A stretch of DNA of 18,580 bases from a virus. This document shows, piece by piece, positions 15,204 to 18,200 of the stretch. Within the stretch, counting starts at the first letter, position 1. The number at the start of each line of letters is the position of its first letter. Location: UHGV virus genome UHGV-0153540. One strand, written 5' to 3'. The position numbers were made by a program.

Positions 15204-18200
15204 TGACACGAAATAAACGTCCGACAAGCACAGCAGCCAATACCTAAAAACAATATTTTGCCGAATATTCAGTTCGTTATAAAGGTTAAGCATTGAGTAT
15301 ACCAACTGTCTCTCTATGGAATGAGATGGGGTTAATCCCCCCAATAGACGAGGCTGATCCTACAAGCCATACTCGTTCCCCATACAAAATGGATATAGTA
15401 CGCTTTGTTAGTACTTTTTCGCTTAGCCCTGCAAGGATTAAAATCCTTAAGGGTTTTCTTAACTTTCGTGTTTCACTCACTCAAGCAGGGCTAGTTGAAG
15501 GTTTTCAGTGGGTAGATGGAAGCTTCACAGAACATATTGAACTTATTGAAAAAAGGCCACCGAATGATGTCGATGTTGTGACCTTTTTTCAATTCAGTAA
15601 TGGCGATAATGATGCAATCGTAATCGGTAGAAAGCCAGAGCTATTTGATCATGATTTTGTTAAGAAGGAGTTTTTCGTAGATTCCTACTTCCAAGAACTT
15701 AATCTACCAAGTCATGAGCTTGTTGAAATGACTGTATATTGGTACAGTATGTGGGCACATAGACGCGATCTGTCGTGGAAGGGATTTATCCAAATCCCGT
15801 TAAACCCACAACTTGATGTTGTGGCAATGACTATACTTAATTCGGCTACTACTGAGGGGGTCAAACAATGAATCGTAATGATTATGTTTTCGCTCTCAGT
15901 GAGCGCGAGCAAATAAGTAATCTATTAAAAAATATGCCAACAAGTCATTCTATTAGCCGAAAAAGCTTAGAAGACCGTCTGGAGAAAGTTGAGCGATTAA
16001 TTTCACAAGCTGACGTTCGAGAACATGAACCTACGCATGCTGTGTTAACTTTTAGAGGCCCAACAGTAGTTGGCACGCATGGCATTTCAGCAGTATTTGG
16101 AACAAAAGCTATATCTTGTTTTAATGATGCAATAGCTTACTTGGCAACCTCTTTCAATGGCCCACTTCCTGCATCAGGCAAGATACCAAACATAGAAAAT
16201 AATCATCTCATGATTACCGCGTCAGCCCGTGGTTCTTTCGGATTCGTACTTGAAGAGTTTAGACCTGATGCTCCTCTTGAATTCGATGAAGAAACCCCAG
16301 TAGCAAAAGCTATTAATAAGGCCAGAAAAATATTTCAGGCAAGCTTGGATAATGATGATGAAGAATTGTCTGATGCTATAGAAAACTTAGACTCTCGGGC
16401 CTTAGATAAAATCAGAGCATTCATTCATTATCTGCATGAAAATAAAACAGTTTTTACACTTAAAAGCCAAGGTTTTAGCATCGTTTTTAGAGAGCCAAAA
16501 CAGCTTGAAGCTGTATATCAACATCTCAGCAATGATAACATTCAGCAGGAAAAAATTATTGAGAACGTTATATTTTTGGGAACTCTTCCTAACAAGCGCC
16601 AATGTGAATTTATAGTTTTAGGTAACACTGATATCAGAACCGCTAGCATTGACAAAGCTGTAGATGACCCAGATATTATAAACAAGCACTTAGGAAGCGT
16701 TGCAACAGCCACGTTCCTGAAAAAAACTGTTGGTAAGGGCAAGCCCAGATACACTCTGGTTTCTCGACCTCAATGGGATATTAAATCAATCGATTAGAAT
16801 GAGCCCCTTCAGCCCGGCCTCCGCGCCGGGTTTTCTTTTACCATCAGCCCGTCAAAAACACACCTAACGAATTGTATTTATTGAATAAATATAAATCACA
16901 CTTATCACATTGCGCAATTCAGCTCCTACACATCCAGACTAGCTCTGCAAAACTTTAAAAAAATAAATCAATAGTAAAAACATGCACATAACCATTTGCG
17001 GTAATATTTTATCTCTAGCGGTGTTGACGAAAATACCTCCGGCGGTGATACTAAACACATCAGCAGGACGCTGGAAGCTAAATGGAACAGACTGGCAGGC
17101 TCTTTAAACAACGTCGACTCTCGACTACGTGGCTGAAAAGCCAGATCACCCAACCACATAAGCTGTGGGATGCAATGCCGAAGCAACCGTCTCAGGAGGA
17201 GCTTCGAGATTGCATCACCAAAGTTTATTCGGGAGGAATCTATGTCCAGAAAAACAGAATTTAAAGGCACCTCAGCTTCTCGTCGTAGAGCTCGTCGCGC
17301 AAACCTGCAAAGTCAGGAGGCGATTAGCTCCGACAAGCTACACAGACCAACCCCCTCTCGAGTGGTCTTGCAATGCAAGCGCAAACCAGCAATGAGAGCA
17401 GAAGTAATAACACTGACAACGTTGACCAGAAAATATGAAGGCTCAACTTGTCTTCCAAATGTAGCTCTTTACGCGGCAGGCTACCGGAAATCCAAACAAC
17501 TGACAGCAAGATGACTTGTGTTGGTCGCCAGAAAATGAGATTAGGCAGCAAACCACTTATTTGAGAGGAATTAATATGTCATCAATCCGCTTAACTACGA
17601 GAATGAAAGAGAAAATCGCTCGTAACGCTTTAATTAAATCTGGGGTTTTCACTGAGCTTGAAGAAGTAACAAAGTTAAAGAACCAGCTTGCACTTGACGC
17701 CAGAGTTGTTGCGTTTGGCGGTAAAAAGAAAACTGAGGAAGTGGATCAGTTATCATCCAAGTTAATGGCTATAAGCGAAGAACTTGAAAAGCTGGGATGT
17801 TCATTTTACTCATGCGATGCCCGTTCAACTTCAATTTATCTGACTGTATCTGGCAGAAGGGTTAGCTGGTATTCATATGGGAAAGACGGCAACGGCAAAG
17901 ATATATTGCTCCCTACTCCGACCAAAGATAAATGCATGTTTGACGCAGAGCACGAAATAACAAAAAGGTTTGATGAAATCTGCGCATTGCAACAAAAACT
18001 TGAAGCCAAGAAAAAGGATATCGAATCAAATGTATGGGCTGCTTTGAACTCAGTCACAACAGTTAAGCGACTTATTGAAGTTTGGCCTGAAAGCAAAGAG
18101 TTGCTACCAAAAGAAGCAGATAAAGCAAGTACAGCACTTCCTGCTTTACGGGTAGAAGATTTGAATAAGATGATTGGACTTCCTTCCGAGGTCGCATAAT

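Follow-up and report, generated by a model that had tools for sequence, protein, structure and literature searches.

In phage lambda the repressor gene cI is followed by rexA (279 amino acids, aa), rexB (144 aa) and N, and the two rex genes, closed by a terminator, are transcribed from the promoter PRM in the lysogen. Here we describe a pair of genes, A and B, that stands at the rexA/rexB position of the virus genome UHGV-0153540. The stretch analysed, 18,580 nucleotides in all and called the window throughout, is a lambdoid prophage whose + strand is lambda's leftward strand, and in it A and B lie on the same strand as cI, directly 3′ of a near-identical repressor gene and 5′ of OL/PL. They resemble rexAB in slot, strand, flanks and closing terminator, and presumably also in transcription from PRM in the lysogen, but have no homology to either rex gene; moreover, RexB is a multi-pass membrane protein, whereas B lacks a membrane segment. 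We suggest, at slightly better than even confidence, that A–B is a two-protein conflict module (anti-phage or toxin–antitoxin-like) that is carried in place of rexAB and expressed in the lysogen.

Several described systems bear on this proposal. In type VII HepT–MntA systems the minimal nucleotidyltransferase (MNT), almost always the product of the 5′ gene, neutralises its partner by nucleotidylation, and HEPN–MNT modules cluster with restriction–modification operons (PMC3710099). A–B resembles them in having a small gene for a predicted Pol-β-type nucleotidyltransferase on the 5′ side, which overlaps the gene of its 3′ partner, in its association with restriction–modification genes, and in the presence of MntA structures among the best fold matches of A; it differs in that the partner of MntA is a HEPN RNase with a conserved Rx4-6H motif, and B has neither. 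AbiE/MenAT, CBASS and Hailong share with A–B a two-gene defence logic around a Pol-β-fold nucleotidyltransferase, and their fold similarity to A is confined to the generic nucleotidyltransferase core. The nearest named entity is PDC-M63 of PADLOC, a candidate by guilt-by-embedding: PDC candidates are defined by their embedding in restriction–modification or BREX systems, and the restriction–modification niche from which they were drawn is shared by PrrC-type and other embedded defence genes (bioRxiv 10.1101/2024.01.29.577857). A matches PDC-M63A and A–B is likewise found embedded in restriction–modification operons, but the matches to PDC-M63 and PDC-M32 are distant (E 2e-10 for A), the window's B is unmatched, and the PDC systems are themselves only candidates.

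Two translationally coupled genes in the rexAB slot

The presumed cI–A–B transcription unit and its right-hand border comprise the following features.

14458..14492, + strand: PRM-like promoter read from the sequence, TAGATA-17 nt-TAGATT, with its 3′ end 6 nt ahead of the cI ATG
14493–15206, + strand: cI repressor of the imm-lambda type, with HTH_3 and Peptidase_S24 Pfam matches, annotated as a LexA family protein in Escherichia coli CE10
15207..15292, + strand: 86-bp spacer between cI and A, with an AAAGG Shine–Dalgarno-like site 8 nt 5′ of the TTG
15293–15871, + strand: gene A, 192 aa, TTG start, DUF6932 protein
15868–16797, + strand: gene B, 309 aa, predicted soluble partner
16811–16842, + strand: intrinsic terminator of the cI–A–B unit, with an 8-bp stem at 16811–16832 (6 GC pairs) followed by a T run
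16996..17060, + strand: OL/PL region, the right edge of the variable slot, with PL (TTGACG-17-GATACT) at 17024–17052

A preliminary description of this DNA, made by eye, had reported two co-directional open reading frames (ORFs) of 192 and 309 aa joined by an ATGA overlap behind a near-lambda cI, and both the coordinates and the identity of the repressor to lambda cI (224 of 237 residues, 95%) agree with it. The region it delimited, from 15207, holds for the ORFs described but not as a gene start, the first gene running only from 15293. A and B are translationally coupled: the overlap lies at 15868–15871, and a GAGGGGG Shine–Dalgarno sequence stands 8 nt 5′ of the ATG of B. The TTG of A is the first possible start, two codons past an in-frame TAA at 15287, and it is supported by the conserved N-terminal IP-x-WN motif of the family, which sits 5′ of the first ATG. 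The RefSeq annotation of E. coli CE10 gives both genes at identical coordinates which, together with the many homologues of each, argues that they are real genes and not chance ORFs. Three further features noted by eye were recovered, namely the closing terminator, the placement of the pair just ahead of OL/PL, and its AT-richness (GC content 0.37–0.41, against 0.45–0.52 in the flanks).

The replacement of rexAB has sharp borders. Nucleotide similarity to a lambda lysogen ends exactly at the cI stop codon, and matches to the PL–N regions of other prophages resume from about 17054. The view that neither ORF is like RexA or RexB was upheld: BLASTP against lambda RexA gave E 7.0 for A and 0.76 for B, and B against RexB gave E 5.6, so both identities were rejected, and PADLOC returned no match besides PDC-M63A. 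Nor is either protein membrane-embedded, as had also been judged by eye, since the maximal 19-residue Kyte–Doolittle hydropathy is 1.13 for A and 1.16 for B.

The promoter at 14458..14492 has the hexamers and the leaderless arrangement known for lambda PRM and is the presumed source of a leaderless cI–A–B transcript. A + strand terminator scan of the cI–A interval found none, and promoter-like matches within A–B were no commoner than in shuffled sequence, so that we claim no internal promoter.

The whole of 15207–16840 (1634 bases) recurs at 100% identity in E. coli O7:K1 CE10 and in seven other complete genomes (8 of 5426). The same region found no match by megablast in 50,697 GenBank phage records.

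An obligate and widespread pair

Scanning a one-genome-per-species collection with an A profile yielded at least 572 confirmed stretches, and the best 80 loci were examined. These come from Enterobacterales, Aeromonas, Pseudomonas, Burkholderiales, Planctomycetota, Chloroflexota, Chlorobi, Myxococcota and methanogenic archaea. Immediately 3′ of A and on the same strand, 79 of 81 genome loci have a homologue of B (E 1e-69 to 1e-153), in most cases with a 4-bp overlap; the other two loci are contig ends. A reciprocal picture came from a B-centred scan of IMG/VR, which gave 67 viral contigs: A is immediately 5′ of B in 66, the exception again being a contig end. The order A then B was kept in every complete pair (145/145). 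Pairwise identity in A is correlated with that in B (r = 0.85 over 126 unique pairs), A being the more conserved of the two (mean identity 46%, against 39% for B). No third conserved gene was found, the immediate neighbours being heterogeneous. Together, these counts show that A–B is an obligate, mobile and co-diverging two-gene module that spans bacteria and archaea.

Some form of the module is present in 34 of the 5426 complete E. coli genomes. A second A–B variant, with about 67% nucleotide identity over A, was seen in E. coli SUISSEKPC3NDM5 (L153:3977-5478) and in 25 other E. coli genomes; it stands behind a different cI, in another lambdoid prophage that carries GamL/Bet/Exo. By tblastn, B had no match in the 50,697 GenBank phage records, against the 67 IMG/VR viral contigs that carry it, and the module thus seems to be confined to integrated or uncultivated temperate phages rather than isolated ones.

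Protein A is very probably a divergent minimal nucleotidyltransferase

A matches the Pfam family DUF6932 (E 2e-26), phrog_9194 and the PADLOC candidate PDC-M63A (E 2.2e-10), and the PDC-M63A model in turn matches all 31 of the aligned diverse relatives of A (best E 1.1e-16). The earlier statement that neither ORF could be recognised therefore does not hold for A, and the cassette as a whole is uncharacterised only in part.

The 31-sequence alignment, which spans Enterobacterales, Burkholderiales and Planctomycetota, among others, has eleven invariant residues (G76, S77, D92, D94, D130, Y149, W150, H156, W162, K163 and G164); the corresponding positions are at least 95% conserved in the 126 unique pairs, in an alignment that numbers A four residues lower owing to trimming. 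Five of these residues fall in a G-S...DxD...D signature, of which the DGSF...NDVDVV string of the window's A is part. In the AlphaFold2 model (mean predicted local distance difference test score, pLDDT, 89.7), the order of elements is helix, strand 1, GS loop, helix, strand 2 (DxD) and strand 3 (D): G-S lies in the loop after strand 69–75, DxD at the start of strand 93–100, and D130 on strand 129–135. A GS loop, a DxD and a third carboxylate on this order of strands are the layout of Pol-β-type nucleotidyltransferases, and its parts (the hG[GS] loop, the DxD on the next strand and the third carboxylate) are all present and conserved in A. Foldseek matches to the model were weak, with 2rff at the top (probability 0.96, E 0.023), followed by the MntA antitoxin of HepT–MntA (7bxo, 5yep and 6m6v; probability 0.33–0.72) and with 7ae9 also among them, and they agree with one another in being minimal nucleotidyltransferases. 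By sequence, A matched no nucleotidyltransferase, whether as a Pfam model or as a PDB profile; such PDB sequence and profile matches as A and B produced (repeat-protein, BAG-domain and RF2) were spurious and were rejected. The conserved residues and the predicted fold make it very probable that A is an active minimal nucleotidyltransferase that has diverged strongly, and the faint GS...DVDVV motif picked out by eye proves to be invariant across phyla at G76, S77, D92, D94 and D130.

An enzyme of this kind could also make a signal. A–B might be a Hailong- or CBASS-like pair in which B is the receptor for a nucleotide or oligonucleotide made by A and is activated when this signal changes during infection. 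The shared two-gene logic around a Pol-β fold is consistent with this, but A–B has no SMODS or CD-NTase match and no HalA-like membrane effector, and we regard such a pair as quite unlikely.

Protein B is soluble and has no known fold

B matches only phrog_18731. It has no significant match in Pfam, NCBIfam or PADLOC and no relative in the PDB. In an exhaustive profile search 1479 clusters (50% identity) reached E 1e-3 or better, 615 of them 1e-30 or better, and the relatives are about 300 aa long in nearly all of the 150 best matches listed. An apparent restriction of B to Enterobacterales, from 31 word-indexed matches, was an artefact of sensitivity and is refuted by this search and by the locus analyses.

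Across the family E12, R37, F62, G64, G72, F77, D163/D164, R177, R244 and E247 are invariant or nearly so, as are A120-R-G-S-F-G-F126 and E129-E130 in a Gly-rich β-hairpin (A-R-G-S-F-G-F-x-L-E-E, residues 120–130). The AlphaFold2 model (pLDDT 85.3) consists of an N-terminal helical hairpin, a β/α region that holds the Gly-rich hairpin, a helical segment and a C-terminal β domain in the form of a small β-barrel. An R-x5-H string (REHEPTH) had been singled out by eye; it is present in the window's B but not conserved, the family has no invariant His, and there was no HEPN fold match, so that a HEPN reading of B was rejected. To this soluble protein neither a known fold nor a catalytic motif can be assigned.

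With the catalytic signature found only in A, the roles of the two proteins could be the reverse of those in HepT–MntA. A would then be a toxic nucleotidyltransferase acting on tRNA or another nucleic acid, in the manner of MenT/AbiEii, and B its antitoxin or a phage sensor; AbiE and MenAT are established examples of nucleotidyltransferase toxins, and the modelled C-terminal β-barrel of B could serve in binding or sensing. However, A–B matches neither the DUF1814 (AbiEii/MenT) toxin nor an AbiEi-type antitoxin in Pfam or PADLOC, the closest folds to A are MNT-type antitoxins and not MenT, and an enzyme encoded by the 5′ gene is in the antitoxin position of MNT–HEPN pairs (PMC3710099). Natural decay favours neither direction, as one genome locus (L012) has a truncated A with an intact B and one viral locus (L136) an intact A with a truncated B. 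On balance we consider reversed roles unlikely.

The pair is found with restriction–modification genes and prophage repressors

Type I restriction–modification subunits flank the pair in 21 of 80 genome loci, typically in the one-strand order hsdM-hsdS-A-B-hsdR, with Pfam matches to N6_Mtase/HsdM_N, Methylase_S and HSDR_N/SWI2_SNF2. A second context recalls the window itself: in 49 of the 67 viral contigs a cI-type repressor (HTH_3 and Peptidase_S24, or a short helix–turn–helix, HTH, protein) is encoded on the same strand, directly 5′ of A or one small ORF away. A phage repressor also stands ahead of the pair in 7 gamma-proteobacterial prophage loci. Prophages of Citrobacter, Photorhabdus, Atlantibacter, Superficieibacter, Aeromonas and Providencia share the repressor–A–B layout, as does the second E. 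coli variant; among the viral contigs it persists even at about 33% identity of B to the window's B. Placement 3′ of a prophage repressor is that of the defence gene bstA (PMC8585504). Otherwise the neighbours are a varied set of housekeeping or mobile genes, in line with a mobile cassette, which indicates that A–B stands alone. Context thus strengthens the case for defence, through the repressor that lies 5′ in most prophage copies and the embedding in type I restriction–modification operons.

In some loci an extra small gene (DUF3024, DUF2939 or an ORF of 80–100 aa) lies between the repressor and A, as in Providencia (L052:5598-5939), Aeromonas (L013:5411-5989) and several IMG/VR loci. Such inserts are not conserved across the family, those with DUF3024 and DUF2939 being sporadic.

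The slot itself varies. A cI-to-N query matches 1271 of the 5426 E. coli genomes, and the window's cassette is in only 8. Behind cI-type (LexA family) repressors, E. coli prophages (L082, L083, L084, L085 and L154) carry alternative cargo, listed here with that of lambda.

PIN and NYN genes: E. coli prophage (L082)
DUF1902 gene and HicA toxin gene: E. coli prophage
Hypothetical gene and DUF1828 gene: E. coli prophage, recurring in many genomes and itself uncharacterised
Other hypothetical genes: E. coli O157:H7
rexAB: lambda

These differing cassettes identify the cI-to-PL interval as a variable cargo hotspot in E. coli, as the preliminary description had anticipated.

Proposed function of A–B

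If A–B is a conflict module of the kind proposed above, the PRM transcript would express A and B in the lysogen, as it does rexA and rexB in lambda, and would supply them in low, constitutive amounts, and the module would act as an abortive-infection/exclusion or toxin–antitoxin-like system. Of the possible mechanisms we favour one modelled on type VII MntA–HepT, the nearest working analogue. A, the product of the 5′ gene, might hold the effector B inactive by nucleotidylating it, with the invariant R-G-S-F-G-F hairpin as a candidate site; infection could lift this block, either because A is disturbed or because the β-barrel of B binds a phage trigger, and B, once freed, would arrest the cell. 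Such modification of B by A is possible but tentative. It is doubtful, although it would be the most far-reaching form of the idea, that B represents a new kind of effector switched by nucleotidylation by a divergent minimal nucleotidyltransferase, so that A–B would be a non-HEPN branch of type VII, serving as a RexAB substitute in prophages and as a second line of defence in type I restriction–modification operons across bacteria and archaea.

Several observations weigh against a conflict module. About two thirds of the genome loci have no defence-related neighbour. The choice of B as effector is a guess, as B has no recognisable toxic or enzymatic domain, and the transcription of A–B from PRM is deduced from the layout. 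PADLOC matched no model to the window's B, so its models alone would call no complete system here; among 40 relatives of B, weak matches were seen to PDC-M63B in 5 (best E 2.7e-4) and to PDC-M32A in 15. In addition, deletion of a PADLOC-called PDC-M63AB prophage locus, of uncertain closeness to the window's cassette, caused no change in E. coli NILS69 against 10 virulent phages; this is the sole published test of PDC-M63AB, and its phage panel is narrow by its authors' own remark (PMC12409345). Neither DUF6932 nor the RefSeq accessions turned up in the literature searched, and the DefensePredictor preprint makes no mention of nucleotidyltransferase, DUF6932, repressor, rexA or PDC-M.

The negative deletion test (PMC12409345) would also fit a pure addiction (stabilisation) module or a lysogeny accessory without an anti-phage role, whose part would be to stabilise prophages and restriction–modification operons, or else to alter some host or phage factor to the lysogen's advantage. 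A mobile two-gene cassette among heterogeneous neighbours is in keeping with such a role, and HicA-type toxin–antitoxin genes share the slot. Yet embedding between hsdS and hsdR and occupation of the rexAB slot are typical of exclusion and abortive-infection genes such as PrrC, Rex and BstA (bioRxiv 10.1101/2024.01.29.577857; PMC8585504), and addiction and defence are not exclusive roles. We judge an addiction or accessory role alone to be very unlikely, and retain the conflict module as the preferred reading.

Other features of the window

On either side of the cI–A–B unit the window keeps the lambda arrangement.

14192–14392, − strand: cro, from gene order
14445–14417, − strand: PR, from a promoter scan
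3′ of PL, + strand: N-like gene, from gene order

The protein accession of cro in CE10 is the same as that in a lambda lysogen. At 17082–17514 (+ strand), RefSeq calls two overlapping 'hypothetical proteins' in CE10. The second, at about 17242–17514 (+ strand), starts MSRKTEFKGTSASRRRARRA and is labelled antitermination N peptide in other genomes; it is likely to be an N-like antiterminator with an arginine-rich motif. The first gene past it, at 17516–18199 (+ strand), is an early PL-operon gene labelled 'Nmad5 family putative nucleotide modification protein' in CE10, and an Nmad5 family gene is also found 3′ of N in another prophage (L082).

Inside an HTH replication-type gene (ORF 12791–13591, − strand), positions 13213–13300 hold 3.8 copies of a 24-bp tandem repeat that encodes GGAGAAR peptide repeats. 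The product of this gene has 258 aa in CE10 and 266 aa in the window, from which it follows that the number of GGAGAAR repeats varies among otherwise near-identical prophages. By analogy with lambda O, the repeat may be iteron-like origin DNA within the initiator gene.

Implications

If functional, A–B would be a widespread two-gene immune or toxin–antitoxin module with an effector that has no known relative, on a scale of at least 572 genome stretches (one genome per species), 67 viral contigs and 1479 clusters of the B family. The analysis also shows that the cI-to-PL interval is a hotspot for cargo, and it links a prophage cargo to genes embedded in restriction–modification operons; both the location and the architecture of the pair match a specialist's expectation of defence cargo. 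The window's copy lies in the best-understood of phage regulatory regions, an imm-lambda region in which rexAB has been replaced, so that standard lambda genetics can be brought to bear on its expression, on self-immunity upon induction and on exclusion phenotypes. The breadth of the family, an effector without relatives and the lambda-like immunity region together make A–B an unusually tractable candidate.

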